IMG/VR virus record: IMGVR_UViG_2778261535_000013
Span: 1-43,950 of that record
Direction: 5' to 3' (one strand)
From: a virus
Taxonomy: Duplodnaviria; Heunggongvirae; Uroviricota; Caudoviricetes
DNA: 43,950 nt
Made by a program: the position numbers and the translations under genes. Under the pieces are notes generated by a model. The model was not told the origin of the DNA. It worked only from the letters and a program-made list of their open reading frames with translations, and ran no database searches. Positions 8,714 through 29,369 of this stretch are shown piece by piece (positions within the stretch are counted from its first letter, which is position 1; each line of letters opens with the position of its first letter).

Positions 8714-9450
8714 TTAAAGCGAGCGGATGCCCACGCTGACCAGATGTTCAGACAGATCCGGCTCCGGTTCACCACCATTGACCAGCATCCGGCTCATTGC
8801 TGTAAACATCGCAACAGGGCCGTCGATTTTGGCTTCCGGCGTGGATTTATTCGGGAAGATGTTGTCGTTTTTGTCCGGTTTTACCGTAACGTTAGACATC
8901 ATCCAGTTCATGACCGGATGATTGCTGTGATGGAAACGCCCGGCATAGACCAGTGATTCCGTTTCCTTCATGGCCTCTGACAGATTGCGAACCGTCTGCG
9001 GAACCTCCACCAGCGGTATCCCTTCTTCAGCCAGTGCCAGGCTGAACTGCATCGCGCTCCACGGGTCAAATCCCAGTTCCCTGAGGTTTTCACCACCAAT
9101 CCATTCCAGTAAGTCACTTTTTATCTGAGCATGATCGATAACATCACCATCCGTCAGAATCAGCTTATCCATCTCCGCCCACTTCCGGTAAAGTTCTGCC
9201 TGCTGCCGCGAGCATCGTTCCAGCCGTCCTTCCGGAAGCCAGAATTTAAAATCGGCATGAACATGCCCGTTATCCGTTCGCCAGAGTTTTGCCGCCGCAC
9301 AGATATCAATCTTATGAGCAAGGTCAACGCCGACCCACATGGGATACGTTTTCAGCTCATGTCGTGGGGCAATGTATTCGCACTTCTCCCACTTAATCAT
9401 GTCCATCCAGGCAGACTCTGCTGTTACCCACACATTCATGTGTTTGGTAA
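8714..9450 (-). pseudogene. terL: terminase large subunit, C-terminal (nuclease-domain) fragment of an interrupted gene
   Basis: 241 aa ORF begins …TKHMNVWVTAESAWMDM…; the frame is open upstream only to the insertion junction at 9450; it continues the N-terminal fragment at 24089-25116 when the insert is removed. Confidence 0.8.
9444..9450. repeat. att core copy (TTGGTAA) at left junction of the inserted element
   Basis: identical 7-mer at 24089-24095; joining left flank plus core plus right flank restores the terL reading frame. Confidence 0.6.
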
Positions 9451-9525
9451 GAATATTTCAAGTTTTTTAAAATCACCTGTATATCAATCGTTTAACATGA
9501 AAAAACAGTCTTTATAAATCATCAA

Positions 9526-9546
9526 GCAATACACAGCGCAATACAC
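9526..9546. repeat. GCAATACACAGCGCAATACAC, candidate integrase arm-type site (left arm)
   Basis: near-identical 21-mer (one mismatch) at 23938-23958 just inside the opposite end of the element. Confidence 0.4.
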
Positions 9547-9731
9547 GTATCTGTATTGTTTTAATGCTGATACACACCGTTTTTTGATACAGTGATTCGA
9601 CCTACCATCGCGAAGAATTTTTTATTTCTTGTGTGTAACAATCTGACGAGGTGAGCACTCAAAGAGATAAGAGGCAGTAGAAATTTCGATCCCCCCTGAA
9701 TGCAATTTTTCGTATATATATACAAAACAGC

Positions 9732-9885
9732 GCGGGTTATGCGGGTTAGCGGGTTATCTTCGCGTGCTAAGCATTTTTTACTCTTTAATATCAATAAGTT
9801 AAAAAAACAACGTATTTAAATATCAGCCAGAATATAACCCGCAAGACATTCAAAATAACCCGCAAACACCCCTCAAATAACCCGC
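9732..9885. repeat. iteron cluster A: three tandem GCGGGTTA(T/G) copies, an AT-rich spacer, and three inverted ATAACCCGC copies
   Basis: direct reading of the sequence; the same 9-mer recurs at 17572-17694. Confidence 0.55.
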
Positions 9886-9966
9886 AAAAACATCCCTGAA
9901 AGTGGGCGCTGGTAATACTGAAAATTTATTCCATTAAATGAGCATTGTCCTCTCTCATCCATTCCG

Positions 9967-11628
9967 TTACACACCATCAAACGCCGCAAGCCGCTCTTTG
10001 TGGCTGTCGCTCATATCGAATGCAAATTCCTCATGCTCTGCCTGGAATGTGCCAAACGCCATCAGCGCCGCAACGCTCGGGTCTATCTTGTTGGATGATT
10101 TTTTCTTGTTCGGCTTGATATTGGCGTTCGCGTCACTCTGCATCACAACATTACTCATTGACCAGGCCAACACCGGATCACCACGATGCACAATCACCTT
10201 CCGGTTAACAAAAACTTCGAACGATTTCGCCGCCGGACTGAAACGAAGATATGTTTGCGGGAACGGCTCCACCTCAAATCCTGCTCCCTGTAGCTGCGTC
10301 CTCAGGTGCGTGGCGTTCCATGTATCGAAGCCCACCAGCCTGATATTGAAATTCTCTGCATCCGCCATGATGTCATCACGGATACGGTCATAATCAATGC
10401 AGTCACCCGGTGTTGTGCGTATCCAGCCCGCCTTTACCCACTGGCGATAGATGGCGCGGTTTTTATTGGCGGGATTCTGTAGCTGAAATTCCGGCAGATA
10501 GTGACGGGAAACCAGCATAATCTTTTTACCGACCGGGAAGGCATAGCACACGCTGGAAATATCGCTGGTTGATGATAAGTCCAGCCCCGCGTAGCACTCC
10601 TGCCCGTATAAATCCGCCTCCGCGAACGTTCCGGCACACTCCGCCCATGCACCGTTACCCATCCACGGCGTAGCCCCCTGACACCAGATATTGAATCGCT
10701 TGGTGAGCATTTCCACCCACTGCGACGGAATACCCCGCGCTTTCTGGATGGTTGAGGCCAGTTTTTCACGATCGACGGAAACATCGATATTGGGATTCGC
10801 CTTTATCCACATCGCCGGATCGTCAACCTCGCTTTCATCATCCAGCTCGTAAATCAGCACGAACATGGATTCGTTCACCTCTTCACCATCCAGTATCTGG
10901 CAGCAATAGTCGTAGTGTTGTTTACAGGCTGAAACAACGTTGCTCCCCGATGTGGTGATGGCAAATAATACCCCCTCTGGACGCGCCCCCATTCCCAGTT
11001 CAAGCGCGGAATAAACCCCGTTGTCAGGGTGCAGGTGATATTCATCCACAATGGCAAGACTCGGGTTTTTCCCCTCAATGGTTGCCGCTTTTGCTGCCAG
11101 TGGCGTTAACAGGCTGTTGGTTTTCGGGTGTATCACCTTGTGCGCCTGAATATTTACCCGCTTTCGTAACGGTCGGGATAAAAGGCACATCTGACGCGCA
11201 TCATCAAACACGATCCGCGCCTGATCACGACTCACGGCGGCGGTGTAAATATCCTGCTGCCCGTTTTCCATAACCAGAAACCAGTTAGCTAGGATAGCGG
11301 CGACCGTGGATTTGGCATTTTTTCGCGGTACTTCAATGAATGCGCTGGTGTATTTGCGCCGTCCGGTGGCCTTAACCTTAAAGCCCAGGATGCAGGAAAA
11401 GGCGAACTGCTGCCACGGCTCCAGTTCAATGGGGCTACCGCGCATTGCGCCTTTTACGTGCGGACACACCCTGGAAAAGGCAATAAACCGCTCCACGACC
11501 TCCTGATCGAACGTGTAAAGGGGGTTTTCGAGGTCAGAAAAATATCGTTTAACGGCCTGTTTCAGTCGTTTACAGGCCGTAATTTTGCCGTTTTTTACGC
11601 CTTCTGCGTACTCATGCCAGGCGGTCAA
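9967..11628 (-). CDS. terminase large subunit (element-encoded)
   Basis: 553 aa with ATPase-like N-terminal and nuclease-like C-terminal regions; translationally coupled to the upstream TerS. Confidence 0.9.
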   Translation of the reverse strand: MTAWHEYAEGVKNGKITACKRLKQAVKRYFSDLENPLYTFDQEVVERFIAFSRVCPHVKGAMRGSPIELEPWQQFAFSCILGFKVKATGRRKYTSAFIEVPRKNAKSTVAAILANWFLVMENGQQDIYTAAVSRDQARIVFDDARQMCLLSRPLRKRVNIQAHKVIHPKTNSLLTPLAAKAATIEGKNPSLAIVDEYHLHPDNGVYSALELGMGARPEGVLFAITTSGSNVVSACKQHYDYCCQILDGEEVNESMFVLIYELDDESEVDDPAMWIKANPNIDVSVDREKLASTIQKARGIPSQWVEMLTKRFNIWCQGATPWMGNGAWAECAGTFAEADLYGQECYAGLDLSSTSDISSVCYAFPVGKKIMLVSRHYLPEFQLQNPANKNRAIYRQWVKAGWIRTTPGDCIDYDRIRDDIMADAENFNIRLVGFDTWNATHLRTQLQGAGFEVEPFPQTYLRFSPAAKSFEVFVNRKVIVHRGDPVLAWSMSNVVMQSDANANIKPNKKKSSNKIDPSVAALMAFGTFQAEHEEFAFDMSDSHKERLAAFDGV

Positions 11629-11968
11629 GCTCGTCCTCCTCCTCTGTTTCCGGTGGATTTCTGCGGCGGCTTACCGGGTCAAAACCCAGCAAAGAAGCCA
11701 TTTTGATCATTATTCTTTCCGCGTCAGCCTTTGCGCTCAGGGCGGGGTTTCTGCTCTCGCTGCCCTGACTGTTAACAATGCTGAAGCCGCGCGTCGCAAG
11801 GTCTTCGACGGCTTTGCGGTATATGGAGTAGTTAACGCAATACAGTTCCAGATTGCTCCAGTCGGCGGGGGTAAGGTCTTCCCGCCCGGAAAGCTGGCGC
11901 GATTTTTCCTTCCACTGCCTGACCGCGATTTCATCCAGGTAAGCGGGGGCTTTTGGTGGTCTTGCCAT
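11612..11968 (-). CDS. terminase small subunit, P27 family
   Basis: likely start MARPPKAPAYLDE… at 11968; the ORF track extends further upstream to 12109; directly upstream of TerL. Confidence 0.7.
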   Translation of the reverse strand: MARPPKAPAYLDEIAVRQWKEKSRQLSGREDLTPADWSNLELYCVNYSIYRKAVEDLATRGFSIVNSQGSESRNPALSAKADAERIMIKMASLLGFDPVSRRRNPPETEEEDELDRLA

Positions 11969-12256
11969 GTTCTTTTTTCGCCCAATTATTTTCAAAAAAA
12001 TTCCCGTGCACAAAAATTTGAGGAGGCGGTCGGTGTCCGGCAGGGACGGTTTTGTCCTGAAAACCTCCCCCACCCCCTCTGACGGCCTCACCAGCGATTG
12101 CGAAAACATTCCATGACCTCGCGGTCACGGTCGGTTAATTGCTTCGCTGTGGTGCGTTCTGTGCGCCCTGTCCTGTTGGCTTTGTGCCCTGTCTCCTGTG
12201 TCTTCCATAAGTCACGCTGCCTTATCAGTCCACGTATCAGCCTGTTTTGCTCCTGT

Positions 12257-12697
12257 TCAGTCATCATCGCCATACATCCAGTCGTTACGGTGTGCCGCCC
12301 GTTCTTCCTGCTCGCGATACATGCCCGCCTTACGGTTCGCTTTCGTGGCTGGATCTTCCCGTGTCGTCTTACGGTTGTGGCACGTCTGGCACAATGCCTG
12401 GTGATTCCACTCAGGCCAGAAGAGAACATCACCGCCGCCATTGATGGGAATGATGTGATCCACCACAAGAGCTGGCGTATAAATCCCCTTAGCCAGACAA
12501 CGCACGCATAACGGGTTTTTGCTCAGGTACAGGGCGCGGTATTTGTCCCACTGTCGGGAATACCCGCGCGCGCGGCGGTGTCCCCGTCTGGCATCCTCTG
12601 CACGCCATGCAGCCCGCCTGTGCTCTTCACACTTTCCGGACTTCACGCGCTTATTACAGCCCGGCTCAGTGCAGCGCCTTAATGGTTGCCACGGCAT
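12257..12697 (-). CDS. HNH endonuclease (packaging-associated)
   Basis: 146 aa with Cys-rich N-terminus and VVDHIIP…H…C HNH motif; positioned next to TerS. Confidence 0.8.
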   Translation of the reverse strand: MPWQPLRRCTEPGCNKRVKSGKCEEHRRAAWRAEDARRGHRRARGYSRQWDKYRALYLSKNPLCVRCLAKGIYTPALVVDHIIPINGGGDVLFWPEWNHQALCQTCHNRKTTREDPATKANRKAGMYREQEERAAHRNDWMYGDDD

Positions 12698-12996
12698 CAG
12701 TACACCCCCACATCACGATAAACCGACCAGAGCGCAGAAATAGCCATAGGCAGTTCAGACTGCTCCACAGGTGAAACCGCTTCCCTGTTCTCGTACAGGA
12801 AAGCGATGTACATCAGGCAACCAACACGTATTGCCGGGGTAAATTCCAGCCCGTCTTCAAAACGTTTCCCGATATGCTTCTGGCAGGCTTCCAGCGCCGC
12901 ATCGGTATACATTTTCAGAAGTTCGCCTTCTCCGGAAAAGTCATCAAGGCGAAGATGTGCCCTGACTTCATCAGGTGTAATTTTGTCTTCACTCAT
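12697..12996 (-). CDS. head-tail connector (gp6-like)
   Basis: likely start MSEDKITPDEVRAHLRLDDF… at 12996; similar in pattern to the resident gp6-like protein. Confidence 0.6.
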   Translation of the reverse strand: MSEDKITPDEVRAHLRLDDFSGEGELLKMYTDAALEACQKHIGKRFEDGLEFTPAIRVGCLMYIAFLYENREAVSPVEQSELPMAISALWSVYRDVGVY

Positions 12997-14203
12997 CTTT
13001 TTCACCTTTAATTTCCACAGTCTGCTTCCATGCCTGGCTGAACTCGTCGCCACCTTCACGCGGCGGCATTCCCTCACGCTCACGGGCTTCGTTCGGATTC
13101 ATGATCCCGTTCTTAATCCCTTTCTCATACGTGGCGTAACGTTCAGTAGGTGTGGCGCGCAGTAAATCGGCTGAATCAAACTCAACCAGATAACGGGTAC
13201 CAGGTACGGGAGAAGCCACCAGCAAAGCGGCCTTGATTTGCTGTTCGAAGTTCGCCAGCCACGGACGCATTGTCATAGTCAGAAACGCGCGGCTTGCCTC
13301 ACTGAAATTGCTGTAGGTGCTGTTGCTGTATTCCTGCAGAAAAATCGGCGACACGTTGAACATCCGGGCGATGTCTTCAATGGAGAAGCGACGGGAGGCC
13401 AGCCATTCCGCATCCTGGTTACTCATCCCCAGTTGCTTGTAATCCATGCCCCCTTCAAGGATTGGCGTTTTTCCGGCATTTTTCGCCCCCTTGTAGCGTT
13501 CCAGTGCGTCTAATGCCTGTTTACCTTTCACGCCGTCCAGCCATTCGCCTGACGTGATAATCCCTGCCGCCATCATGCCATCTTTCATAATGCTGGCTCC
13601 GTGACGCTGTTGAGCAAGGCCAAGCCCCAGCGCCTCACGGCAAATCGTGATGGGGGAGCGTCCCAGAAAGCCATCATCCGAGGCATAGCGGAGATGCAGA
13701 ACTTCTTCCTGTAAATACGTGCGCACCGTTCCTGTACAGGGTTCGGTGATGGTATAGCGGTATTTGTGTGCGCCTGTGCGTTCCGGTACAACACACCCCG
13801 GCGCATAAGGATGAAGTGATTTTGGCTGACCGTCCCGCCCCCATTCAATAACCGCATAGGCGTTACCGTTCAGCAGGCAGTGACGCATCATTGTGCGTTT
13901 AAACTGGTAAGGTGTCTGGCACGAATTAGGCTGCTCATTCAGCAGAATATCTACCGGATGACTGTCCAGCCATTCCCGCGCCTCCCTGCCCTTGTCATTA
14001 CGTACCAGATACAGATAACACGGCATCGTGGCCACCGCCTCAGCGATGACGGAAACCGCGTTCATCACTGCGGGCAATGATTCAGCCGTCCCGGCAGAAA
14101 CATATTCTCCGGATCCGGTATTCGGTACGCCGGACAGCACCAGAAAATCATCAATGGACAGGTTACGTTGCTCGCTTTTTTTACGACTAAAAGGCCACCA
14201 CAT
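12989..14203 (-). CDS. portal protein, HK97 family
   Basis: likely start MWWPFSRKK… at 14203, one nucleotide after the protease stop; the ORF track extends upstream to 14422 across the protease gene. Confidence 0.8.
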   Translation of the reverse strand: MWWPFSRKKSEQRNLSIDDFLVLSGVPNTGSGEYVSAGTAESLPAVMNAVSVIAEAVATMPCYLYLVRNDKGREAREWLDSHPVDILLNEQPNSCQTPYQFKRTMMRHCLLNGNAYAVIEWGRDGQPKSLHPYAPGCVVPERTGAHKYRYTITEPCTGTVRTYLQEEVLHLRYASDDGFLGRSPITICREALGLGLAQQRHGASIMKDGMMAAGIITSGEWLDGVKGKQALDALERYKGAKNAGKTPILEGGMDYKQLGMSNQDAEWLASRRFSIEDIARMFNVSPIFLQEYSNSTYSNFSEASRAFLTMTMRPWLANFEQQIKAALLVASPVPGTRYLVEFDSADLLRATPTERYATYEKGIKNGIMNPNEAREREGMPPREGGDEFSQAWKQTVEIKGEKDE

Positions 14204-14204
14204 A

Positions 14205-14765
14205 TCACAACCCCGCCAGCTCTGCCCAGCGATGACGATTATTTCCTGCCGGGCGTAATTCAGGGTGCTGTGCAAACAACGAACGGTGGGCAATCTCCAC
14301 GCCAGATTCGGGATAAGCAGGCATCGACGTGATCGTGATTTCCCTGAGTTCTGCAGCGGTAACAGTACGCAGATACGGTTTTTGCGCGATATTCCACTCT
14401 TCGCATAATGCGCGAAAGCCAAAGCTCATCCCTGTAATGTCGCCACGCTCCACCAGCGTAAGCACATCTTTTCCAAGCTGGGTATCAGGCGGTGTCAGTT
14501 CAAAACGTAGCCCGGTGTTGTCCTCAGTCAGTACCAGAGTGCCGGATTTGGTGCGCCCCAGCAGTTGGGTATAGTCATGCTCATACAGGCAGCGCACATC
14601 ATTACCCGCCGCCAGATAGTCAGCAAAAGCCCCCGGCGTGAACTGTTCGCGGAATTCGTCCCAGATAATTTCTGAAAGGCTGTTCCAGCGAACGGCATAC
14701 CCCACCAGCTTTTTATTGCTGGCGGTCAGTTCAGATGTGCGGATTTCAAAATCGGTGTTTTTCAT
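14205..14765 (-). CDS. prohead protease, HK97 family
   Basis: 186 aa; sequence pattern of HK97 prohead proteases; lies between capsid and portal genes. Confidence 0.85.
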   Translation of the reverse strand: MKNTDFEIRTSELTASNKKLVGYAVRWNSLSEIIWDEFREQFTPGAFADYLAAGNDVRCLYEHDYTQLLGRTKSGTLVLTEDNTGLRFELTPPDTQLGKDVLTLVERGDITGMSFGFRALCEEWNIAQKPYLRTVTAAELREITITSMPAYPESGVEIAHRSLFAQHPELRPAGNNRHRWAELAGL

Positions 14766-14819
14766 CGGTGTACTCCATAAAGCTGAAAAAGGAGGCCGCA
14801 GCCTCCTCCTTACTCATGA

Positions 14820-15989
14820 CTAGCCAGCTTTCATTTCCAGAATTTTGATGGCGTTTGAATCCACCACACCACCGCCCAGATATTTATCCGTGTGGACCTT
14901 GTAGAATCCGGGTTCAGTAATGTTGTCCGGTCGGGTGCGAATCCCTGTTACATGATCAACGATGAAATAACCACGACTGAAATCGCCAACCGCTAGCGGT
15001 GCTTTTCCTGCGCCGATGTCCGGCATGGACTCCAGGCAGAAAACAGGACGACCAAGCAACATATCCGGCGCACCTTCTTTAAGGCTGTCGCGCCAGATAT
15101 AATCGCCATTCTCATTTTTCAGCTTCTGTAGTGTCCCTGCCGTGCCCGAGTTCATCACCCAGACGGCATTTTTGCGGTATTTCGCTTTCAGCTTGTAGAG
15201 AATGTCGATCAGTTCGTCCGCTGTAATGGCGGTTCCACTTGCCGCTACCACTTTTTCAATGGTGCCAAAAGCGCGGGTTTTGTCACTGGTCGCCGCACGG
15301 GTGTAAGCCATGAAGCCTTTCGGCTTGCCGTTACCGTCGCCATTAACAAAATCATCCTCTTCGGTGCTGGCGAACGTGTCGGCAATTTCGGAGGATAACC
15401 AGCCCAAAATATCCACCTCTGAAAAATCCAGGATTTCCTGCGTGGTTTTCGGGTAGGCGTAGATCTGATTCAGCTTGATGGTTACACGTTCAATTTTCGG
15501 GGTGTTGGTTTCACTACGTGCGCTGCCTTCTGTGCCTCGTCCTACAGTTGCGCCGCCAGTGGAAACCAGTTTCTGAAACTCATTTGATTTTGCGGTCTTC
15601 ACGGTCGCGATCACGCGCATAACACTGTCATCCTGTAGCTGGCGCATGACTTCGCGATCAAGCTCAGGAATTACGGTATATCCGCCATCCCTGCCGCTGT
15701 CAGTGCTGGTGGACAGTGATCGCACATCTCCGGTTACGATGTAGTTACGCAATTCATCAGATGATAATTTCTGGATGCCCGTTCCTGGCTTGCTGCGTTC
15801 TTCATCAGCCACAGACTCGAGGCGGTAAATTTCTGTGTCGAGGGAATCGGCTTTTGCACGCAGTTCATCAAACTGTTTGCCCTCGTCATCGTTCAGGCTG
15901 CGGTTTTCACTGTCGGCTTTTTCCAGCAGGGATCGCATCTGGTTTTTCAGGGCGGTTTTTTGCTGGCGGAGTTCGATTAATTTCTTCAT
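14820..15989 (-). CDS. major capsid protein, HK97 family
   Basis: 389 aa; N-terminal coiled-coil region then capsid-fold sequence closely paralleling the resident capsid protein (…GDGNGKPKGF…). Confidence 0.9.
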   Translation of the reverse strand: MKKLIELRQQKTALKNQMRSLLEKADSENRSLNDDEGKQFDELRAKADSLDTEIYRLESVADEERSKPGTGIQKLSSDELRNYIVTGDVRSLSTSTDSGRDGGYTVIPELDREVMRQLQDDSVMRVIATVKTAKSNEFQKLVSTGGATVGRGTEGSARSETNTPKIERVTIKLNQIYAYPKTTQEILDFSEVDILGWLSSEIADTFASTEEDDFVNGDGNGKPKGFMAYTRAATSDKTRAFGTIEKVVAASGTAITADELIDILYKLKAKYRKNAVWVMNSGTAGTLQKLKNENGDYIWRDSLKEGAPDMLLGRPVFCLESMPDIGAGKAPLAVGDFSRGYFIVDHVTGIRTRPDNITEPGFYKVHTDKYLGGGVVDSNAIKILEMKAG

Positions 15990-16226
15990 GAAGGTTTTCT
16001 CGTATTGGTTAAGATTCAGGACGTGAAACCAACACGGAGGGAGCGCCGCCCGACACTCTCGGCATCTCGCAGATCAACCCGGCATCGCGCAGGGGGTCAG
16101 GCGGCATTGTGGCGGCTCACGTCTGAGTGCCACACGCCAACATATACATAAAAATCAGTATGTAAACATCAGCCAGAATCACCGAACAACCTGGAACAAC
16201 CACGAACAAATAATTTACAAAACCTG

Positions 16227-16255
16227 AAAAAAAGACCTGGAGAAAATCCAGGCCT
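16227..16255 (-). terminator. intrinsic terminator after the replication/accessory operon
   Basis: minus-strand stem CCTGGA/TCCAGG with loop, followed by TTTTTTT. Confidence 0.5.
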
Positions 16256-16263
16256 TTATCGCT

Positions 16264-16512
16264 TTATTGTTTCACTGGATCCCGCATTCTGCGTCTTATT
16301 TTCCACAGATATTCGATCATCGCTTCCACCTGCTCACGATTGGTTGCGAAAATTTCCCCGGTCAGTGAGCTGCGCAGAAAATCATGATGATCCACAACAA
16401 ACAACGCATCGGAAGAAAGCAGACGGCGATATTTTTTTGCTGTCGTGGTTTCCAGATCATCAAAACCATGAAACTTTTTATGTTGCTGGACTTCTTCAAA
16501 TGTCACTGGCAT
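16264..16512 (-). CDS. hypothetical protein
   Basis: 82 aa ORF overlapping the ProQ/FinO-like gene stop; no motif. Confidence 0.35.
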   Translation of the reverse strand: MPVTFEEVQQHKKFHGFDDLETTTAKKYRRLLSSDALFVVDHHDFLRSSLTGEIFATNREQVEAMIEYLWKIRRRMRDPVKQ

Positions 16513-17045
16513 GTATCCCCCTTTGCTGCCCGGCGCTGGCGCTTGTGCTTCTCATTCAGCGCCATCAGCCGCGTTTCTGCCTCCTGCTGTTCCTGTGGTG
16601 TCACTTCCCCACATGGCTGGCCTTTCAGGTCGTATCGTACCCCACCAGCAACCAGGGCGCGGTAATAGCGCGGAGACTGCGCATAAGATGCCAGCGTCGC
16701 ACGTAATGCCCCCGGCCCGAATGCCAGCCCCCTGACGGCGAGATCCTGCATCAGGTCGTCGAATATCCCCACCTTAAGCGGCTTCGGTGCTTCCCTGTTG
16801 AATAAGTCAGGCCACATCTCAGTGAGGCGGTTAACGCGCCTGCGGTTTTTGCGCTGGCGTTTGGTCATATGCCGCCACGGTGTCACCCCTGTGGGCTGCC
16901 CTTTGCGGCTCTGCTGTGCGTTCTGATTGCCGGGTATCACTTTATGCGCCGATGTGGTTTTATCCCGCTCTTGCGCCGCCTGCGTCGTTTTCTGCGGCGT
17001 GCCGTAAATGCCTTTCGGTTTTCGGTTAATGGTCAGCTTTGTCAT
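16503..17045 (-). CDS. ProQ/FinO-domain RNA-binding protein
   Basis: C-terminal region …WPDLFNREAPKPLKVGIFDDLMQDL…YAQSPRYYRAL…RYDLKGQPCGEVTPQE… aligns by eye with the ProQ N-terminal FinO domain; basic N-terminus. Confidence 0.7.
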   Translation of the reverse strand: MTKLTINRKPKGIYGTPQKTTQAAQERDKTTSAHKVIPGNQNAQQSRKGQPTGVTPWRHMTKRQRKNRRRVNRLTEMWPDLFNREAPKPLKVGIFDDLMQDLAVRGLAFGPGALRATLASYAQSPRYYRALVAGGVRYDLKGQPCGEVTPQEQQEAETRLMALNEKHKRQRRAAKGDTCQ

Positions 17046-17081
17046 GCCTTCCCCTGTAATTACTCTGTTCGCTGTTGTGAA

Positions 17082-17507
17082 TTAAAACTGTATGTTATCC
17101 CCGTACAGGTCATCGTGCTGGCCTGTCTGTTGTTTTGCCCTGTTCAGTGCGTCAGTGGCCTGCCCCTGTTGGCCTTTTTTGCCGCCCGGTCGCGCCGTTC
17201 TCGCACTGATTACGCTGTCTGCGATGACCTGCCAGCCCTGCCGCGTTTCGCCGTTCTGCCCTGTCCACTGGCTTACCTGCATGTTACCCGCCACGTTCAC
17301 CAGTTCGCCTTTGCGGTGTTTTGCCAGTGCGTCGGCCTGTCTGCCAAACGCCAGGACGGATAACCACATCGTCGCCGTTCCGTCATCTGCCTGGCTGCAT
17401 GGCAGGGGAACCGCCATACTCGCCATCGCCATTTGTGTTCCCTTGCTGGTGGTCTTTAACTGCGGGTCAGCCACCAGCCGCCCGTAAGCCGCTATCTGTG
17501 CTGTCAT
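17082..17507 (-). CDS. ssb: single-stranded DNA-binding protein
   Basis: 141 aa; N-terminal OB-fold-like sequence, Gly/Gln-rich linker and acidic C-terminal tail DDLYGDNIQF. Confidence 0.7.
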   Translation of the reverse strand: MTAQIAAYGRLVADPQLKTTSKGTQMAMASMAVPLPCSQADDGTATMWLSVLAFGRQADALAKHRKGELVNVAGNMQVSQWTGQNGETRQGWQVIADSVISARTARPGGKKGQQGQATDALNRAKQQTGQHDDLYGDNIQF

Positions 17508-17571
17508 GCTGTCTGCTCTCCGGTTTTAACGTTGATGGTTACGCTTGTTTACACCCTTACGGTGAAATTCT

Positions 17572-17694
17572 GCGGGTTATAATCGCACTTTTGCGGGTTA
17601 TAACTGCCGTTTTGCGGGTTACGTGCGGGTTATTGATTTCCTTTTTATTCATACAGTTAATGCACTTATATACATGATAACCCGCATAACCCGC
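17572..17694. repeat. iteron cluster B: four GCGGGTTA(T/C) copies, an AT-rich spacer, and two inverted ATAACCCGC copies; candidate origin
   Basis: direct reading; lies immediately downstream of the replication gene. Confidence 0.6.
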
Positions 17695-17717
17695 AACTTT
17701 TCACCTCACACAGGGGG

Positions 17718-19841
17718 TTAATCTTCTGCCTCAGGCTGGAACATCAGCACGTAAAAAACATGCTGCTTCCCCCCAATTTTGCCGAGCGCCTTTTTCTTGT
17801 AACGGCGATCGTTACCCGCTTCCAGCATTCCGGCAGCACTCAACGCGCGGGCAAAGTGAGACGGATTAAATCCCTGTGCTATCTCACCCTCAAATACATG
17901 CGGGAACGTGTAAAAACGGAACTCGTCATCTTCGTTTCTGATACTCCCCTTTCTGTATCCGGCAAGTTCTTTAATCGGTAAATCACGCTCGTCGGTATTG
18001 GGCCACGGAAGGTATCTGCTGAATCCGAACGACGCTAAAAAAGCTTCTGCCTGTTCAACCATCTGTTTAAATTCCCTGTTACCCGTGCCGAACTCCTTCA
18101 CCCAGGCATTAAAATTATGCTGTATGGCATCGCGGCATTCCTGCTCATCCCAGCCAGTAACATGACCTGAAAGCACAAGCGCGGCCTCCAGTATGGCAAA
18201 TCGCTCCCCCACACGGTGAACCTGTTCGCCGTAGCTCTCCGGTATCAGGTTGCGCCACCGCTCACGGCATGTCCTTACCGTGTCCTTTGCCTCCTGCTGG
18301 TGTTCTGCCAGCCATTTAACCCACTCACGACCCGCCGCCCCGTGATTTTCTGTCCAGGCATCCTTTAACGCGTCTGCGTGCGCCTTTCCGGTGCTGTATT
18401 CGTGAAATTGCGTGGCTTTTTCCATCGGAACGTTAAGCAGGCGGACAAGCTGCCCCGCTTTGACTTTTATCCCCTCCGTTTTGAGGAATGTCTCAACGTC
18501 CATTTCTCCGGTGCTGATTGCCACCGTGCGCCAGTGTTTGATCTCCCTGTTGCCGCCGTCCTTCGCCCCCTGTAATTTCCCCGAACCGTTAAACAGCGTA
18601 TAGGCTGACGTGGACACCTCCCGCGCGTTTCCGGCCTGGCCTATTTCATCCAGGGGTAAAAGCCCGTCATTGTGTGCCTCTGCTTCGTTGGCGATACCTA
18701 ACGCTGTGCCGTACCAGGTCAGCCGCTGCGCGTCCGGCTCTCCCCATAAACTTGATGCGATGTTCTGTGTGGTGGTTTTCCCTGCCGATGACTGTTCGAA
18801 AAGATGTACCCCGAAGCCGTCAGCGCCCACCAGCCCGATTAATGGTGCGGATAACGATACCGCCACACCCAGCATCATGGACGGATTACCACCAGCCAGC
18901 CGCGCAACGGTATCGCGCCAGCCCTCCGCCGTTCCTGCCACGGAATAGCCATTAACAGCAGCCGTTTTTCCGGTAAACAGGACTGGCTTTTCGCAATCAC
19001 CAATGACCGAACCGTCCGGCATGATGTACGCGCCAAAATGCCAGCCCGTTGTTGTGCTTAACTGCCATTCCTCATGGCTTCCGCTTAACTGCATCCAGTC
19101 AGCCAGGATAGCCCTGTATTTACCGTTGGTTGTTACGTTCAGTCCGTGGTCTTTCAGCAACCGCCAGCCGTCACGGTCGCCAATGCCACCGCACGGAACC
19201 GCCATTGTGATGACTTCATGGTTTGCTAATTTTTTCCAGCGCATCACGCGGTAATGCTCTTTACCGATTGTCCCCGTTCCCAGTAGTTCAAGCGGGGAAC
19301 ATAACCACGTCTCAGGCCGGATAATTTCGCCTGACTGCTTATCCACTTTTGGCGTTACCCAGAAAACACCATCGGCGCGACTTTCAACGCGGGGCTTTAA
19401 TTCATCATCGCCCTGGATTTCTGTGATTTTTTTCTTTAAGGGCAACACCAGACTTTCCCCGCGCTCGTATTCGTCTTTGAGGCGAGGCAACTGGTCGGAT
19501 AAATCCGCCGGGCTGATGTCAGTTATCCCCGCGTATTCGTATACGGTCTTCACGCCAGCCACAGCCAGCAACGTGACGATCTGTGTAAGGCTACGTTCAG
19601 TGATGTGCCCTGCGCGGTAAACACGCACACACTGACGGCTATCATCAATAATTTGATAACCGGTAATATCTTTCAGGTGTTCATCTGACAGAACGACAGG
19701 CGGCACATTGTCGGCGGCAATATGCTTACCTGCCCATTCCTGCCACTCTTTCGCATGGCTCCACGCATCACTACCCGCAAAGATGATAACCTCCGTCATT
19801 TTGTCGGCTGGCTGGTGCTTTAAGTTTGGTGCGCGCTTCAT
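17718..19841 (-). CDS. replication protein, primase-helicase-like, with Walker A motif
   Basis: 707 aa; GxxxxGKT (…EQSSAGKTTT…); size and position beside the iterons match PICI/P4-type replication proteins. Confidence 0.65.
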   Translation of the reverse strand: MKRAPNLKHQPADKMTEVIIFAGSDAWSHAKEWQEWAGKHIAADNVPPVVLSDEHLKDITGYQIIDDSRQCVRVYRAGHITERSLTQIVTLLAVAGVKTVYEYAGITDISPADLSDQLPRLKDEYERGESLVLPLKKKITEIQGDDELKPRVESRADGVFWVTPKVDKQSGEIIRPETWLCSPLELLGTGTIGKEHYRVMRWKKLANHEVITMAVPCGGIGDRDGWRLLKDHGLNVTTNGKYRAILADWMQLSGSHEEWQLSTTTGWHFGAYIMPDGSVIGDCEKPVLFTGKTAAVNGYSVAGTAEGWRDTVARLAGGNPSMMLGVAVSLSAPLIGLVGADGFGVHLFEQSSAGKTTTQNIASSLWGEPDAQRLTWYGTALGIANEAEAHNDGLLPLDEIGQAGNAREVSTSAYTLFNGSGKLQGAKDGGNREIKHWRTVAISTGEMDVETFLKTEGIKVKAGQLVRLLNVPMEKATQFHEYSTGKAHADALKDAWTENHGAAGREWVKWLAEHQQEAKDTVRTCRERWRNLIPESYGEQVHRVGERFAILEAALVLSGHVTGWDEQECRDAIQHNFNAWVKEFGTGNREFKQMVEQAEAFLASFGFSRYLPWPNTDERDLPIKELAGYRKGSIRNEDDEFRFYTFPHVFEGEIAQGFNPSHFARALSAAGMLEAGNDRRYKKKALGKIGGKQHVFYVLMFQPEAED

Positions 19842-20152
19842 TTTGCCTTTCCCCGTTCACGAATAATTTCACGTACTGCCTTAATGCGTTCCATTCCTGT
19901 AACGCGCATGATTCTGTCGATGTCGCTTAATTCTGCTGGTGGTGCTTTACTTACCAAGGTGAACTCCCTGTCAAAGCGCATATGTGACGACACGCAGGGA
20001 TGCGCATAACCTTCGCGGATATAGGTCACACGAAAATCATCGACGGTTTTGATCGTTATCGTGCTGCCGTATTTATCCTGGAAAATATCGCCGGGGCGGA
20101 TTTCAGGCCGAGCGGGGCCGCTGGCAGTAAAGCCAGAATTTTTCTTTTTCAT
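19838..20152 (-). CDS. hypothetical protein
   Basis: 104 aa ORF, stop overlaps the replication gene start. Confidence 0.4.
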   Translation of the reverse strand: MKKKNSGFTASGPARPEIRPGDIFQDKYGSTITIKTVDDFRVTYIREGYAHPCVSSHMRFDREFTLVSKAPPAELSDIDRIMRVTGMERIKAVREIIRERGKAK

Positions 20153-20157
20153 GTTTT

Positions 20158-20406
20158 TTACTCCAGAGGCAGCTTTTTAGCGGCGAGCTCAATATCAGAT
20201 GTCAGAGAAACCTGTGTATTTGCCAGGTCTAACAACAAAGAAATAAGAATTTCTTCTCTGCTATCGGATTTATCGGTGCTAAGGCTGTTCATCCACATAT
20301 TGACGACTTCCCTGATTTTTTTCGCAGAGTGCAGGGCTTCAAATGCCAGGTCTTCAATATCATGTTTATTTCGCATAATCGCCCCCGCCATTTTCACAAT
20401 CAGCAA
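20158..20406 (-). CDS. hypothetical protein
   Basis: 82 aa ORF; true start uncertain. Confidence 0.35.
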   Translation of the reverse strand: MLIVKMAGAIMRNKHDIEDLAFEALHSAKKIREVVNMWMNSLSTDKSDSREEILISLLLDLANTQVSLTSDIELAAKKLPLE

Positions 20407-20611
20407 TCAGGATGGCTTTTGCCTCATTCAGCGCCGTATCAGCACTAAATTGCATGACAGCCAGTGAGTGAGGAACGAAAGCCCCGGCATATTCTGTTTC
20501 GCTGGTGGCGTGCTTATGCGCCTTGTCTGCGATAACAGAAATATCAATCAGCGCGTGCATCAGCGTTCTGATGGCTTCGGCGGCTGCGTCCGGACGGGTG
20601 TTATTACACAT
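20366..20611 (-). CDS. hypothetical protein
   Basis: 81 aa ORF; its ATG overlaps the stop of the upstream 67-aa ORF (ATGTGTAA) with AGGAGG RBS. Confidence 0.4.
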   Translation of the reverse strand: MCNNTRPDAAAEAIRTLMHALIDISVIADKAHKHATSETEYAGAFVPHSLAVMQFSADTALNEAKAILIADCENGGGDYAK

Positions 20612-20807
20612 GGCGTACCTCCTGACGAATACGGGCAGTAAATACCATCACGCAGCCGGCCGGGGATTGCTGGCGGGCTTCCTGTTCGCTGGTGGCCTCA
20701 ATGGTAATCACGCGCGGCTTAGCCGTGCTCAGGGCGATAAAACGCCAGATGTATTTATTCAGGTTGTGCGAGTCCCGCCCTTTCGGGTGTGTGGTATGAT
20801 TTAACAT
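20604..20807 (-). CDS. hypothetical small protein (67 aa), first gene of the leftward operon
   Basis: ATG at 20807 with RBS; corresponds to the C-terminal 67 codons of a long low-complexity ORF-track entry that is otherwise implausible. Confidence 0.4.
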   Translation of the reverse strand: MLNHTTHPKGRDSHNLNKYIWRFIALSTAKPRVITIEATSEQEARQQSPAGCVMVFTARIRQEVRHV

Positions 20808-20904
20808 AGCTACCTCGATACTTTCGCTATCGTTGGTGGTTAGAAGCCCCGTTACTGCTCCAACAGTGCGGGGTTTCGTCGTTTCTGCACCTTGCATAAA
20901 CAAG

Positions 20905-20985
20905 GTGTAAGACACAATGTAAAGCAGCAGTGTCTTACACGTCAATCCTTCAAAATAATTTTTTTTCGTGTATATTGTCTTACAC
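20905..20985. promoter_or_regulatory. divergent promoter region with three copies of operator GTGTAAGACAC / GTGTCTTACAC
   Basis: inverted pair at 20905-20915 and 20930-20940, third copy at 20976-20985 overlapping a TATATT -10-like hexamer about 30 nt upstream of the RHH gene. Confidence 0.5.
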
Positions 20986-21006
20986 CAAAAACATAAGGAG
21001 TTAGAC

Positions 21007-21186
21007 ATGGCAACAGGTCCAAAGAATGCAAAATCACAATCTGTAACTGCACGTATTGCCCATGAAATTATTGAAGGCATGGAAAAAGTGAAAGAAGAAG
21101 GCGAAAGTACAGGGCAGTTTATAAGCGCAGCCATGCGTGGCGAGATCAAACGCCGCCAGCGCCGCAAGGCCAAAGAGCAGGAGTAA
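21007..21186 (+). CDS. small ribbon-helix-helix-like regulator
   Basis: 59 aa from ATG 21007 (MATGPKNAKSQSVTARIAHEIIEGMEK…) with GGAG RBS; sequence pattern compatible with RHH/CopG-type DNA-binding proteins. Confidence 0.45.
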   Translation: MATGPKNAKSQSVTARIAHEIIEGMEKVKEEGESTGQFISAAMRGEIKRRQRRKAKEQE

Positions 21187-21243
21187 CCATCACCAGCGCC
21201 GTGGTGAGAGTAACTACGGCGCATTGCTATGCAGGTGCTTACC

Positions 21244-21423
21244 ATGAACGATAAAGAGTTAAAAAAAACACCACCACAAACACGGAAAGGACAGCGCAAA
21301 AAGATAGCGCATGAGCATGAATCAGAAAGATTCGCCCCCTGTGCGTTTGCTCTTGAGAAATTCCTTAAGGAGCACAAGAAAAAGCTATCATTGCAAACCT
21401 GGGAACGAACCGAATCTGACTGA
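21244..21423 (+). CDS. hypothetical small basic protein
   Basis: 59 aa from MNDKELKK… downstream of the RHH gene; no motif. Confidence 0.3.
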   Translation: MNDKELKKTPPQTRKGQRKKIAHEHESERFAPCAFALEKFLKEHKKKLSLQTWERTESD

Positions 21424-21516
21424 TCAAATTGCCCACCAGCCAGCAAATCGCTATGATGTTCGGGCTTATGTTTAGTGTTTTCCCATTGGCGACCGCCCCC
21501 GGTCGCCTTTGTTTTG

Positions 21517-22095
21517 TCACTGAATGCAGTTGTCAAAGTAAAACTCAGGCTGATATTCACGTATCAGCCTTTTTTCTTCTTCCTCCAGTTCACGCTTTTT
21601 GCGCTTACAGGCCTGTAGCTCCCTCCCCTTCTCACTGGCACTTATTTGATATTGCTCTTTACGGCGGGAAAAATCCTGCAATGCGCCCCACGGGATACCA
21701 TAAGCCCCTGTCTTTCTGATACCTGGTATCACATTCCTGAATACCCAGTTACTGAAACGATGAGCAAATGTGCCAGGCGTCGTTGCTTTGCGGCTGCGGG
21801 CTATTAGTTTGTAGAAACCTGACTCAGAGATAATGCTCATATTCTGATTTCCTCCGGGGGTGTAAGTTAAATTTACTCCCTTTTCATCATCATCAAGCAT
21901 CTGCAACGCCGTACGCGAATTGGTCAGTTCCAGCGCAGCGCAAACATCCTTTGCAACAAACCACGGATCGCCGTTCAGATACACCACGCGAACGTTCACA
22001 CCATCAAAGCGCAGAACGACCAGATCACGAATATCACAGAATTTTTTCACATGACGTGCGTCACCCTTGCCCGTCACGGCAATATTTTTATTCAT
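21517..22095 (-). CDS. Bro-N domain protein (antirepressor-like)
   Basis: …GDPWFVAKDVCAALELTNSRTALQMLDDDEK… matches the conserved Bro-N core. Confidence 0.7.
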   Translation of the reverse strand: MNKNIAVTGKGDARHVKKFCDIRDLVVLRFDGVNVRVVYLNGDPWFVAKDVCAALELTNSRTALQMLDDDEKGVNLTYTPGGNQNMSIISESGFYKLIARSRKATTPGTFAHRFSNWVFRNVIPGIRKTGAYGIPWGALQDFSRRKEQYQISASEKGRELQACKRKKRELEEEEKRLIREYQPEFYFDNCIQ

Positions 22096-22152
22096 CGCTT
22101 TCTACCTCACATACAAAAAACCCCGCATTGCGTGGTGCGGGGTTGTCGGTAA

Positions 22153-22431
22153 TTACTTATTGGCGTTTTTGTATGGGCTGTTTACTTCCTTTACTCCTGG
22201 CGGATGCATAACCCACCAGAGCACATCAGAGAGCAACCAGGAAACAGACACTTTCCCTAAATGAGCACGAGCAGGAAATGCTCCCTCCTGTTCAAGTACC
22301 CAACGTCTGCTTCTTGAAAGCCCGGTACGATTGGCACACTCATGTTCGCGTATACGGCGATCATACGGTTCGCCATGCTCTTTCAGAATCTGAATGCGTT
22401 CTTCGGGTGTAGGATAAATAAATTTTTGCAT
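22153..22431 (-). CDS. AlpA-family regulator (excisionase-like)
   Basis: likely start MQKFIYPTPEE… at 22431; …TGLSRSRRWVLEQEGAFPARAHLGKVSVSWLLSDV… matches the AlpA HTH pattern. Confidence 0.65.
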   Translation of the reverse strand: MQKFIYPTPEERIQILKEHGEPYDRRIREHECANRTGLSRSRRWVLEQEGAFPARAHLGKVSVSWLLSDVLWWVMHPPGVKEVNSPYKNANK

Positions 22432-22494
22432 AAAAATATCACCTATAAAAAAACCCGCCAAAAGACGGGTTGATTATATCTCATTTAATTTAGC

Positions 22495-22728
22495 TCAGGG
22501 TTTCCATTCACCCTTTACCCATTCCAGCACCTCAGATAAGCGCCAGACTTTTGTTTGTGGGCCAATACATATTTTTCGTGGAAATTTTCCTTCCTTTTCA
22601 AGTAACGATCTGTGTCTCCTGCCAAGAGCAGTTAACCATGCACATTCATCTTCCTTAATCATCCTGTCGATTGTTTTATCATTTTCAAGTTCTTCACGCG
22701 TAACTATTTGAATCATTACCATCACCAC
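22495..22728 (-). CDS. AlpA-family regulator (second copy)
   Basis: …LLEKEGKFPRKICIGPQTKVWRLSEVLEWV… matches the AlpA pattern; immediately downstream of the integrase gene. Confidence 0.6.
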   Translation of the reverse strand: MVMVMIQIVTREELENDKTIDRMIKEDECAWLTALGRRHRSLLEKEGKFPRKICIGPQTKVWRLSEVLEWVKGEWKP

Positions 22729-23917
22729 TAATTAGCTTATTCAGGTAGTCGTACCACCAGTTCATAGCTTCTTTTTTTCTGTCCATATACTGGCTTCTGT
22801 TATAAACCCCGGCAACACCGCCTAATGTGTGCCCAAGCAACTGTTCAACCACATTATGTTCAAAACCATGATCACTTAGCTTTGTGGCAAACACTCTTCG
22901 CATATCATGCGCCGTCCATTTCTCCGAGTGTTTCATCCTTTTCCATGTCTTACCGATAGTTACGCTTGCCGTACACTGACGCATATCAAACCCAATCACA
23001 TTTTCTTTGTTACCTGTTATTTTTTTTAACGTAACTAACCAGTTAAACATGCCATCAGGAATCGGTCTGATTATTTCCCTGCCATTTTTGCTATGATCAG
23101 CGGGAACGCGCCATAATTTCTTATCAAAATCCCACTCTCCCCAGGAGGACAGTAATACTTCTGACAGTCGGCAACCAAAAACTACCAGGAAACGTAAAAT
23201 AATTCGGTTTTCATATGATAATTCGTGATTGTCATAATCAGTATTAATACTTCGCCATAAATCTCTGATTTCATCATCTGTTAAAACCCTGCTTCTTCGC
23301 GCAGACTTTTTTCCCACATCACAGACCTCAAGATCATCAATTTCATGACTAATCGCGTATTTTCTTACCCGACAAAATTTAAGCGCCTGTTTTGATATAC
23401 GCAATAAAGCTCCGGCCTGTACAGGTGCTACTTTTTTTATTTTGTCAAAGCACTTGATCCACATAGATATTGAGCAATCACTAAGTGGTACATGACCAAT
23501 CACCGGATAAATATGTTTACCAAAGCACTGCCTGATATGTTCTGCTCCCCTACGCTTATCCATTGCATAATTATCAAGCCAGTATTCAAGCGCCTCACGA
23601 ACGGTAACAGGTTGCAAGGTGGCTTCCCGTTCAATTTTTATCTGAATCCGTGGATCTCTGCCCTCCGCAAGCCAGGTTCGACACTGATCGCGCATCTCTC
23701 TCGCTGATTTGAGACTCAGATCAGGATATTTTCCAAGTGTCAGCCAGATGGGCGCGGTTCCCCTTCCCGCCAGTCTGTAAAAGAAAACAAAACTAACACA
23801 TCCGTATTTACTGACCCGTACCGAAAGCCCGTTACCATCAGCGATGGTTTCCTGCCTCTCACTCCTGCGCCCAAGCAGGGAACGAAGTTTTTTATCGCTC
23901 AGTTTGTTTAGCGCCAT
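22694..23917 (-). CDS. int: tyrosine integrase, P4-type
   Basis: likely start MALNKLSDKKLRSLLG… at 23917; C-terminal catalytic region …HDMRRVFATKL…LLGHT…YNRSQY; adjacent to the right junction. Confidence 0.9.
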   Translation of the reverse strand: MALNKLSDKKLRSLLGRRSERQETIADGNGLSVRVSKYGCVSFVFFYRLAGRGTAPIWLTLGKYPDLSLKSAREMRDQCRTWLAEGRDPRIQIKIEREATLQPVTVREALEYWLDNYAMDKRRGAEHIRQCFGKHIYPVIGHVPLSDCSISMWIKCFDKIKKVAPVQAGALLRISKQALKFCRVRKYAISHEIDDLEVCDVGKKSARRSRVLTDDEIRDLWRSINTDYDNHELSYENRIILRFLVVFGCRLSEVLLSSWGEWDFDKKLWRVPADHSKNGREIIRPIPDGMFNWLVTLKKITGNKENVIGFDMRQCTASVTIGKTWKRMKHSEKWTAHDMRRVFATKLSDHGFEHNVVEQLLGHTLGGVAGVYNRSQYMDRKKEAMNWWYDYLNKLISGDGNDSNSYA

Positions 23918-23937
23918 GTGATTTATAACCCGTTTTT

Positions 23938-23958
23938 GCAATACACAGTGCAATACAC
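23938..23958. repeat. GCAATACACAGTGCAATACAC, candidate integrase arm-type site (right arm)
   Basis: matches 9526-9546 with one mismatch; 20-40 nt upstream of the int start codon. Confidence 0.4.
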
Positions 23959-24088
23959 AAATGATGAAAACAGCCAGAACCTTCCAGAAAAAACAAAAAC
24001 GACGAACAAGAAAAAATCTTTTTCTTTCATTTGGTTACTAAAAAAATCAGGACAGGCCGCACTGTTGTTACGGCGTGATGTTACGTTC

Positions 24089-24095
24089 TTGGTAA
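24089..24095. repeat. att core copy (TTGGTAA) at right junction of the inserted element
   Basis: identical to 9444-9450. Confidence 0.6.
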
Positions 24096-25116
24096 AAAAA
24101 TTCACCCGCGCAGAGACCTGTTCTTTCGCTTTTTTCGCCAGGCGACGCAGATCATCCCAGCGTTTACAGATGCCCAGGCCGGGATTCGCTTTCTGCCAGA
24201 CCGTTTCATCAAACGGATCATCTCCCTCATCGAGGGTGTAAATAATCGCAAAGTAGGAGTCGTCTTTTACCGCGCCCTCCACGTCGCTGTTATAGCCACG
24301 CAATACCTTGATGGCGTAATCACGCTGCTCGTAACAAATCCCTTCCTTGTTAAACCCTGCCGTGGTGATACCAAATAAAAGGGACTGCAGACGGGCACCG
24401 GTTGCCGTTTCCAGAACGTCCCACACGTCACGGGTTTTATGTGCATGCAGCTCATCAATAATGGCGCAGTGGATGTTCAGACCATCCAGGTTGTTTGCAT
24501 CCGAAGAAAGCGGTTCAAATTTTGATGCGCTCTGCTCCTGGTAAATCGCCAGCTTGTTGAAATCAAACAACCGCCCGAGTGTCGACCGGGCTTTTCTGAC
24601 CATATTTTTGGCGTCTTCAAACACGATTCTGGCCTGGTCACGCGTAGTTGCGGCTGAATACACCTCAGCACCGCCTTCACCATCTGCCCCCGTCATATAC
24701 AGACCGATACCCGATGACAGGGTTGATTTTGCGTTTTTACGGGCGACTTCGTTGTACGCCGTCCGGAACCGGCGCACCATCACCGGACGTCCGCTGCCAT
24801 CGCTGCGCATGACAACTTCCCCGGTCTCTTCATTGACCAGCGGAATGACAAAACCAAAAATATTAATGAGGATAAATACATGCCAGTCCATCAACTCAAT
24901 AGGCTGGCCTGCCAGCGCCCCTTTTACATGAGGCACAAATTTGTAGAAATTCAGGATGTGCTGCGCACGGGGTTCACTGAAATAAATCCCCCGCTCTTCG
25001 CCGTACTTCAGATCATCAAGAAAACGCTGGCAGGCCAGACGGACAAATTCGCCAGCGACAATTTCTCCTGCAACAACACGTTCGGCGTAGCGGATCCCGT
25101 CAGCCACTTTTGCCAT
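24089..25116 (-). pseudogene. terL: terminase large subunit, N-terminal (ATPase-domain) fragment of an interrupted gene
   Basis: authentic terminase sequence up to …QVSARVNFFTK at the junction, then about 50 codons of element-derived sequence before a stop at 23923; ORF-track entry 23923-25116. Confidence 0.85.
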
Positions 25117-28407: not shown

Positions 28408-28490
28408 TGGACCGTCACCGGGGACTCGAACCCCGCACCACAAAACAACAATACGTGTTATGCACTCTTACCCGATGAGTTAGTGACGGT
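28408..28490 (-). tRNA. tRNA-like gene with non-canonical anticodon arm (possible GUA anticodon), may be a pseudo-tRNA
   Basis: perfect acceptor stem CCGTCAC/GTGACGG, T-arm CGGGG-TTCGAGT-CCCCG and CCA end, but the anticodon arm only folds as ATAAC-ACGTATT-GTTGT with C at position 33. Confidence 0.45.
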
Positions 28491-29135: not shown

Positions 29136-29210
<75 letters not shown>

Positions 29211-29213
29211 ATA

Positions 29214-29289
<76 letters not shown>

Positions 29290-29291
29290 AC

Positions 29292-29369
29292 TGGACCGCC
29301 ACCGGGGACTCGAACCTCGCACACTCAACTTAAAGGGTTGACGCTCTTTCCTGATGAGCTAGTGGCGGT
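29292..29369 (-). tRNA. tRNA-like gene, possible UUU (Lys) anticodon with C at position 33
   Basis: folds as CCGCCAC-TA-GCTC…GAGC-G-TCAAC-CCTTTAA-GTTGA-GTGTG-CGAGG-TTCGAGT-CCCCG-GTGGCGG-T-CCA with one T-stem mismatch; abuts the next tRNA with no spacer. Confidence 0.5.

Follow-up and report, generated by a model that had tools for sequence, protein, structure and literature searches.

Co-oriented doublets at both ends of a helper-embedded E. coli satellite as candidate arm-type sites of its integrase

Helper-embedded PICIs (HE-PICIs), found at 14 sites in prophage late genes, were described by Tommasini, Mageeney and Williams in 2023 (NAR Genom Bioinform 5:lqad036; PMC10111431). Their attP carries a doubled motif, tgTGTATTGCantgTGTATTGCa, in two co-oriented copies whose distances to the attP centre are 81 +/- 2 and 132 +/- 2 bp (PMC10111431). 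The binder of the motif was left open, with AlpA or an unknown protein named as alternatives to the integrase, and the motif was stated as not found in other PICIs (PMC10111431). The supplement includes 15-kb E. coli HE-PICIs at the site A_Terminase_1_246, with the identity block 'ttaccaa' and the helper at potB (PMC10111431). Two other integrases, KplE1 IntS and P4 Int, repress their own genes and have arm sites overlapping the int promoter (PMC2951348).

The window analysed here is a stretch of 43,950 nucleotides with a close match in the chromosome of E. coli EC416. It contains a satellite inserted in the terL gene of a helper prophage, an HK97-type lambdoid prophage adjoining potB, with the following features:

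9451-24088, minus strand: satellite, a capsid-forming, helper-embedded PICI of 14.6 kb (from the annotation of the near-identical EC416 locus and Pfam)
8714-9450, minus strand: C-terminal (nuclease) fragment of helper terL
24089-25116, minus strand: N-terminal (ATPase) fragment of helper terL
9444-9457, no strand assigned: left junction, the 7-bp core TTGGTAA (9444-9450) followed by satellite-derived GAATATT
24089-24102, no strand assigned: right junction, the core TTGGTAA (24089-24095) followed by helper-derived AAAAATT
22694-23917, minus strand: tyrosine integrase of 407 aa, with an arm domain at residues 6-92 and a catalytic domain at residues 211-377
22495-22728, minus strand: AlpA-family gene 1 (Pfam PF05930), overlapping the int stop; candidate excisionase or regulator and a rival candidate binder of the repeats described below
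22153-22461, minus strand: AlpA-family gene 2, absent from the capsid-E-site clade, which has the same motif

The satellite is co-oriented with terL, all of its genes lying like helper terL on the minus strand, in the order int, two AlpA-family genes, Bro-N, Icd-like, DUF927 primase, SSB and ProQ/FinO, followed by the major capsid gene, the prohead protease, the portal, the connector, HNH, TerS and TerL. The junctions and core were mapped by alignment to an uninterrupted terL (L002), which gives attB as ...GTGTTTGGTAAAAAAATTCACC... and places the core centres at 9447 and 24092; automatic detection by longest common substring named false cores in elements whose attB and attP have under 8 bases in common, the window included. 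When the two helper terL fragments are joined at the TTGGTAA core, they encode an intact TerL of 585 aa with both ATPase and nuclease domains, so that precise excision of the satellite would restore the terminase gene of the helper phage. The EC416 copy of the satellite carries an IS1414 insertion (L001 32082-33290) that the window copy does not have; the two copies are otherwise near-identical. Another E. coli element (L163, strain GPT24-02) has TTTGTGA instead of TTGGTAA as its left-junction core in an arm that is otherwise 97% identical, which suggests variation in helper terL or in the crossover region.

RNA genes of the helper prophage include a sok antitoxin RNA, DicF and four clustered tRNAs (Met, Lys, Thr, Gly). 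A fifth ARAGORN call, an 82-nt tRNA-Val(aac), has no Rfam support at the gathering threshold. These features lie at 32357-32531 (minus strand), 38795-38846 (plus), 29139-29445 (minus) and 28408-28489 (minus). Within the satellite, the 11-mer TTGCGGGTTAT occurs in twelve copies with 0-2 mismatches, arranged in two clusters that each contain both orientations (9730-9757 plus and 9834-9887 minus; 17570-17633 plus and 17677-17696 minus); 32 matches are present in the window against 13 +/- 4 expected. The cluster between the primase and ssb genes is likely a replication origin, and the other lies just downstream of the satellite's own terL, near the distal att arm.

The initial annotation had described a 21-bp direct repeat just inside both ends of the satellite, and both copies were confirmed. 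The repeat, GCAATACACAG[C/T]GCAATACAC, occurs on the plus strand at 9526-9546 (GCAATACACAGCGCAATACAC) and at 23938-23958 (GCAATACACAGTGCAATACAC), with 20/21 bases alike. Within each copy the 9-mer GCAATACAC occurs twice in tandem at a 12-bp period, which makes the copy a doublet of two GCAATACA half-sites 12 bp apart with a 4-nt spacer between them, and the two doublets are co-oriented. The 9-mer has only four exact copies in the whole window, where about 0.17 per strand would be expected, and the best 21-mer match between the 300-nt ends of the element (20/21) was not reached in 500 shuffles (maximum 18/21). The features of the two arms are:

9526-9546, plus strand: distal (terL-side) doublet, with half-sites GCAATACA at 9526-9533 and 9538-9545, reading in the int sense as TGTATTGC twice
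23938-23958, plus strand: int-proximal doublet, its half-sites being 23938-23945 and 23950-23957 and its end 20 nt upstream of the int ATG
9552-9559, minus strand: inverted near-copy of the half-site, ACAATACA (1 mismatch), just inside the distal doublet and specific to the window's clade
9482-9494, plus strand: predicted IHF site, a match of TATCAATCGTTTA to the consensus (WATCAANNNNTTR) from a pattern scan, midway between the core and the distal doublet

Measured from the core (9444-9450 and 24089-24095), the left copy is 75 nt and the right copy 130 nt inside; measured from the core centres, the distances are 79 and 134 nt, in agreement with the initial estimate of about 80 and 130 bp inside the junctions. 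The right copy had been placed 20-40 nt upstream of the start of int, and it does end 20 nt from the int ATG (23917, minus strand). Joining the ends of the element at the core reconstructs an attP of about 255 bp that reads int ATG, 20 nt, doublet, 130 nt, core, 75 nt, doublet, with a distance of 233 bp from the start of one doublet to the start of the other. The inverted near-copy at 9552-9559 is not conserved in the other clades compared. In those clades a weaker third half-site, GCAACACA or GCAACAGC, follows the start of the proximal doublet by about 29 nt (L003 20337-20344; Xenorhabdus L004 and L005), and its counterpart in the window (about 23967-23974, AAAACAGC) is degenerate. Of the two arms only the short one has an exact match to the IHF consensus, a single one that other clades do not conserve. 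Rfam gave no hits in either arm.

The initial annotation had named absence of the repeat from relatives that share the integrase as grounds for abandoning the arm-site reading. The opposite was found when the ends of related integrated elements were compared. A scan of IMG/VR with an integrase alignment yielded 80 loci, which together with the window, a relative (L003) and two Xenorhabdus loci make a clade of 84; an integrase protein scan of one-genome-per-species contigs found only the two Xenorhabdus loci, the IMG/VR scans being far richer. The integrases of these loci, from E. coli, Xenorhabdus and IMG/VR contigs, are 50-100% identical to that of the window, and at least three different cores are represented. 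A proximal doublet lies 16-26 nt upstream of the int ATG in 81/81 loci whose int-upstream sequence could be scored. As for the other three, one contig (L010) ends too early for scoring although its doublet is visible, one (L043) has no upstream sequence, and L042 is the one true exception in the clade, bearing a different doublet. A second, co-oriented doublet is present at the far end in 39/39 proximal-doublet loci whose flank reaches about 10-11 kb downstream, each of which has exactly one further doublet. The arms of E. coli relatives that are 96-100% identical are themselves nearly identical and uninformative on constraint. In a dereplicated set of 16 proximal and 18 distal arms, both 8-mers are at maximal information at every position, and the same arms retain almost no information in the 4-nt spacer (GTCT, TTGT, ACCT, CGTA, TGCT, CACT and others) or in most of the flanking sequence.

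The distances to the core are constant as well. The three cores for which both arms were measured are:

TTGGTAA (terL site, the window): 130 nt from proximal doublet to core, 75 nt from core to distal doublet
TGCTTCGGCT (capsid E site): 128 nt from proximal doublet to core, 77 nt from core to distal doublet
ATAATCCTTAAT: 129 nt from proximal doublet to core, 70 nt from core to distal doublet

The capsid E site is represented by L003, an 11-kb satellite with an integrase 50% identical to that of the window, which splits a lambda-E-like major capsid gene at the core TGCTTCGGCT. It and the two Xenorhabdus loci have the arrangement GCAATACA-N4-GCAATACA, present in L003 both upstream of int and at the far end. 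A 70%-identical relative (L024) is integrated at the homologous position of a homologous terL, and a 15.5-kb IMG/VR contig (L025) contains the same element in joined attP form: about 250 nt upstream of int, a first doublet is followed after 128 nt by TTGGTGAAGAAATTG and after about 69 nt more by a second doublet, their starts being 233 bp apart. This observed spacing equals that obtained by joining the two ends of the window's satellite at the core, and the contig is evidence that the element occurs excised or in tandem. Across motif classes, the spacing of the doublets in attP is constant at 233-235 bp. Invariant half-sites with a variable spacer, variable flanks and fixed distances are, as judged from sequence comparison, the classical footprint of positioned protein-binding sites. 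Two different helper-embedded satellites (L028 and L038) were also found on one viral contig, and L038 and L074 have an extra doublet a few kb upstream of int, indicating that one prophage can carry two satellites.

The repeat is the published doubled motif of HE-PICIs, and since the motif, its positions, the arm-site hypothesis and the group to which the element belongs were all published in 2023 (PMC10111431), it is already known and is no new biology on its own. What the comparison adds bears in part on the protein that reads it. The 21-bp repeats are likely to be arm-type sites of the satellite attP, bound by the integrase's arm domains. The initial annotation had proposed P4/lambda-like arm-type sites, a proposal supported by the doublets on both arms, their constant distances from the core, the presence of an arm domain in the integrase and the covariation described below. 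The arm domain, of the P4-type Arm-DNA-bind_3 family (PF13356), spans integrase residues 6-92 (about nt 23642-23902, E = 1.1e-17), and residues 6-101 align to the solved arm-binding domains 3JTZ and 3JU0 (E = 2e-5 and 1e-4). In an integrase tetramer, each of the four subunits would place its N-terminal Arm-DNA-bind_3 domain on one of the four GCAATACA half-sites while the core is held by the catalytic and core-binding domains, and bridging between arm and core would assemble the integration intasome. Bridging is probably aided by DNA bending, for which A-tracts in the long arm and the IHF-like site in the short arm are candidates, and the addition of an AlpA-family directionality factor to the bridged complex would give the excision intasome. 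Integrase bound to the proximal doublet, at 20-41 nt upstream of the int start codon, would by that position also be able to damp the expression of int. On these terms the repeats would explain how the satellite builds its recombination complex. The co-orientation of both doublets was weighed against the arm-site reading, as was the restriction of the IHF match to one arm and one clade.

The doublets fell into three motif classes, that of the helper-embedded clade (GCAATACA), that of non-embedded PICIs (ACTACACC) and that of L042 (two copies of CGAGTACCCCAC). The ACTACACC doublets are carried by chromosomal E. coli PICIs at phoQ/roxA (L006), in tqsA (L007), and by L145/L147 and L115; in L006 (9419-9442 and 20399-20422), L007 (about 9944-9966 and 20304-20326) and L145 they are found at both ends of the element, with a 12-bp period and the same geometry as in the window, the proximal doublet being about 20-40 nt upstream of int and about 130 nt from the core, and the distal doublet about 80 nt beyond the core. 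On the permuted contig L115, two ACTACACC doublets are 233 bp apart. L042 has its tandem of CGAGTACCCCAC, also with a 12-bp period, 30-54 nt upstream of an int whose product is 51% identical to that of the window. The catalytic part of the L042 integrase is 50% identical to that of the window, compared with 41-43% for the capsid-E-site elements; its arm domain has diverged (53% identity to the window) and its motif has changed. The strand motif of the arm domain is IADG.GLS.R.S..G..SFVFFYRL in the GCAATACA class and DGGNLSV....SG.LTWYFTYRA in the ACTACACC class.

Pairwise identities within and between motif classes are:

integrase arm domain: same-motif median 69% (60-99), different-motif median 50% (40-61)
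rest of the integrase: same-motif median 49%, different-motif median 42%
int-adjacent AlpA: same-motif median 51%, different-motif median 50%

The motif class thus tracks the arm domain of the integrase, whereas neither AlpA nor the rest of the integrase separates the classes. This covariation favours the arm domain over AlpA as the binder of the motif, but it is suggestive rather than proof because there are only three motif classes and few independent events, and shared ancestry could yield the same pattern.

The best-surviving alternative, though an unlikely one, is that the doublets are bound by an AlpA-family protein of the satellite, an excisionase or activator that would either direct excision or both activate and repress transcription of int-alpA. 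In favour of this alternative, an AlpA gene overlaps the int stop in every GCAATACA element that has int-downstream sequence (L040 ends at the int stop), a fact that counts against settling on the integrase as the binder, and the proximal doublet adjoins the start of the int-alpA operon. AlpA was also named as a possible binder by Tommasini et al. (PMC10111431), and in KplE1 and P4 the directionality factor acts also at attL and int (PMC2951348). Yet the AlpA proteins do not sort with the motif as the arm domains do. Their median identities are indistinguishable with respect to motif class (51% for the same motif and 50% for different motifs), and the AlpA of the capsid-E-site elements is 58% identical to the AlpA of the ACTACACC-class PICIs but 51% identical to AlpA1 of the window. 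AlpA2 is missing from the capsid-E clade altogether, and L042 keeps its int-upstream doublet although no AlpA gene adjoins int. The directionality-factor sites of lambda and KplE1 are confined to one arm, unlike the equivalent doublets on both arms here.

It is less probable still, and indeed improbable, that the doublets are bound by some other factor outside recombination, such as a nucleoid protein of the host, a Bro-N-type satellite regulator or a helper-phage protein, and might serve as an operator that times the expression of int from helper late transcription. The proximal copy is well placed for such a role, between upstream transcription, including read-through from helper terL, and the int ATG. 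The truncated helper terL frame of the window's clade (23923-25116, minus strand) stays open through the whole int-proximal arm and doublet and stops 5 nt before the int ATG, and no promoter was found in the arm. A pure operator, on the other hand, leaves unexplained both the further doublet, co-oriented and about 14 kb distant, whose spacing from the core is fixed, and the constant attP spacing of 233-235 bp across motif classes. Within E. coli as the single host species, the motif changes with the integrase clade, an argument against a host factor, and the capsid-E-site clade does not conserve the read-through frame. That the repeat is a chance similarity or a functionless remnant of a duplication is effectively refuted: short two-copy direct repeats are common (a repeat search found about 20 other families in the 15.6-kb region), but the 20/21 match stands against the shuffled maximum of 18/21, integrases with as little as 50% identity share unchanged half-sites amid randomised flanks and spacer, and the distances are fixed.

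Binding of the doublets by the integrase, the preferred reading, is also compatible with a role in the control of int. Autoregulation of int is suggested by the position of the proximal doublet and by the precedents of KplE1 IntS and P4. No sigma-70-like promoter was found by a consensus scan of 23850-24150 in the int-proximal arm, which leaves the idea of autoregulation without a located promoter, and consensus scans of both arms for promoters and terminators gave in the left arm only one weak, chance-level hit. In the embedded state, helper late transcription through the terL fragment may reach int instead. In embedded clades the int-proximal doublet might additionally gate the expression of int from helper late transcription, thereby timing the excision of the satellite. 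Three variants (L010, L018 and L019) have an A-run longer by one A, which brings the helper terL frame into frame with int. Translational coupling of the helper gene to int was rejected as a general mechanism, the helper frame of the capsid-E-site clade stopping about 132 nt before int; since the read-through frame is absent from that clade, it is probably clade-specific or incidental.

The same doublet architecture is found with other half-sites in other PICI clades, ACTACACC being one and GAGTACCCCAC another. It is tentatively proposed, with rather less confidence than the arm-site reading itself, that co-oriented doublets about 233 bp apart with a 12-bp period are a general attP design of the wider group of enterobacterial PICI integrases, the half-site being set by a few beta-strand residues of Arm-DNA-bind_3. 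If so, a code relating arm domain to DNA would allow the att sites of satellites to be predicted and re-engineered.

The att region of the window resembles those of the heterobivalent integrases (lambda with its sites P1/P2/P'1-3, P4 Int and KplE1 IntS) in several respects. These enzymes likewise have a separate N-terminal arm-binding domain and an attP of about 250 bp with short non-core repeats on both arms, in which adjacent sites are about one helical turn apart. A bending-protein consensus between arm and core would be a further parallel, seen in the window as the single IHF match of the short arm. As in the window, the int genes of P4 and KplE1 are read away from att, with arm sites in the int upstream region; in the layout of KplE1 intS and P4 int, transcription leads away from attL and putative integrase sites are immediately upstream of the start codon. 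The int promoter of KplE1 and P4 overlaps attL, whereas none was located in the window by the consensus scan of 23850-24150. Lambda has five sites of mixed orientation, while the putative arm sites of the window are two doublets, or four half-sites, all co-oriented and invariant, and the attB of the window is inside a prophage late gene and not in a tRNA or chromosomal gene as in the heterobivalent systems. The arm domains of two P4-like island integrases, the HPI integrase (3JTZ/3RMP) and the HAI7 integrase (3JU0), belong to the same family, PF13356, as the arm domain of the window; their similarity to the window's integrase is low and their DNA motifs are different, so that the homology is one of the reader domain only.

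The closest match is with the HE-PICIs themselves. Their motif is identical to that of the window, GCAATACA being the reverse complement of TGTATTGC, in the same tandem with a 12-bp period, and the distances of 79 and 134 nt to the half-site edges in the window compare with the published 81 +/- 2 and 132 +/- 2 bp. The element of the window is a member of the A_Terminase_1_246 group, with the core TTGGTAA, a position in and co-oriented with terL, and a helper at potB; its integrase is 50% identical to that of L003, whose site type is the 11capE of the published set. Two observations are new here: the covariation that supports the integrase arm domain, and not AlpA, as the reader of the motif, and the presence in non-embedded PICIs of doublets with the same geometry but another sequence (ACTACACC). 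If confirmed, they could help in annotating the ends of satellites and in predicting the arm specificity of their integrases. The published statement that other PICIs are without the motif agrees with the present comparison as far as its sequence is concerned, yet those PICIs have the same doublet architecture, built from other half-sites.
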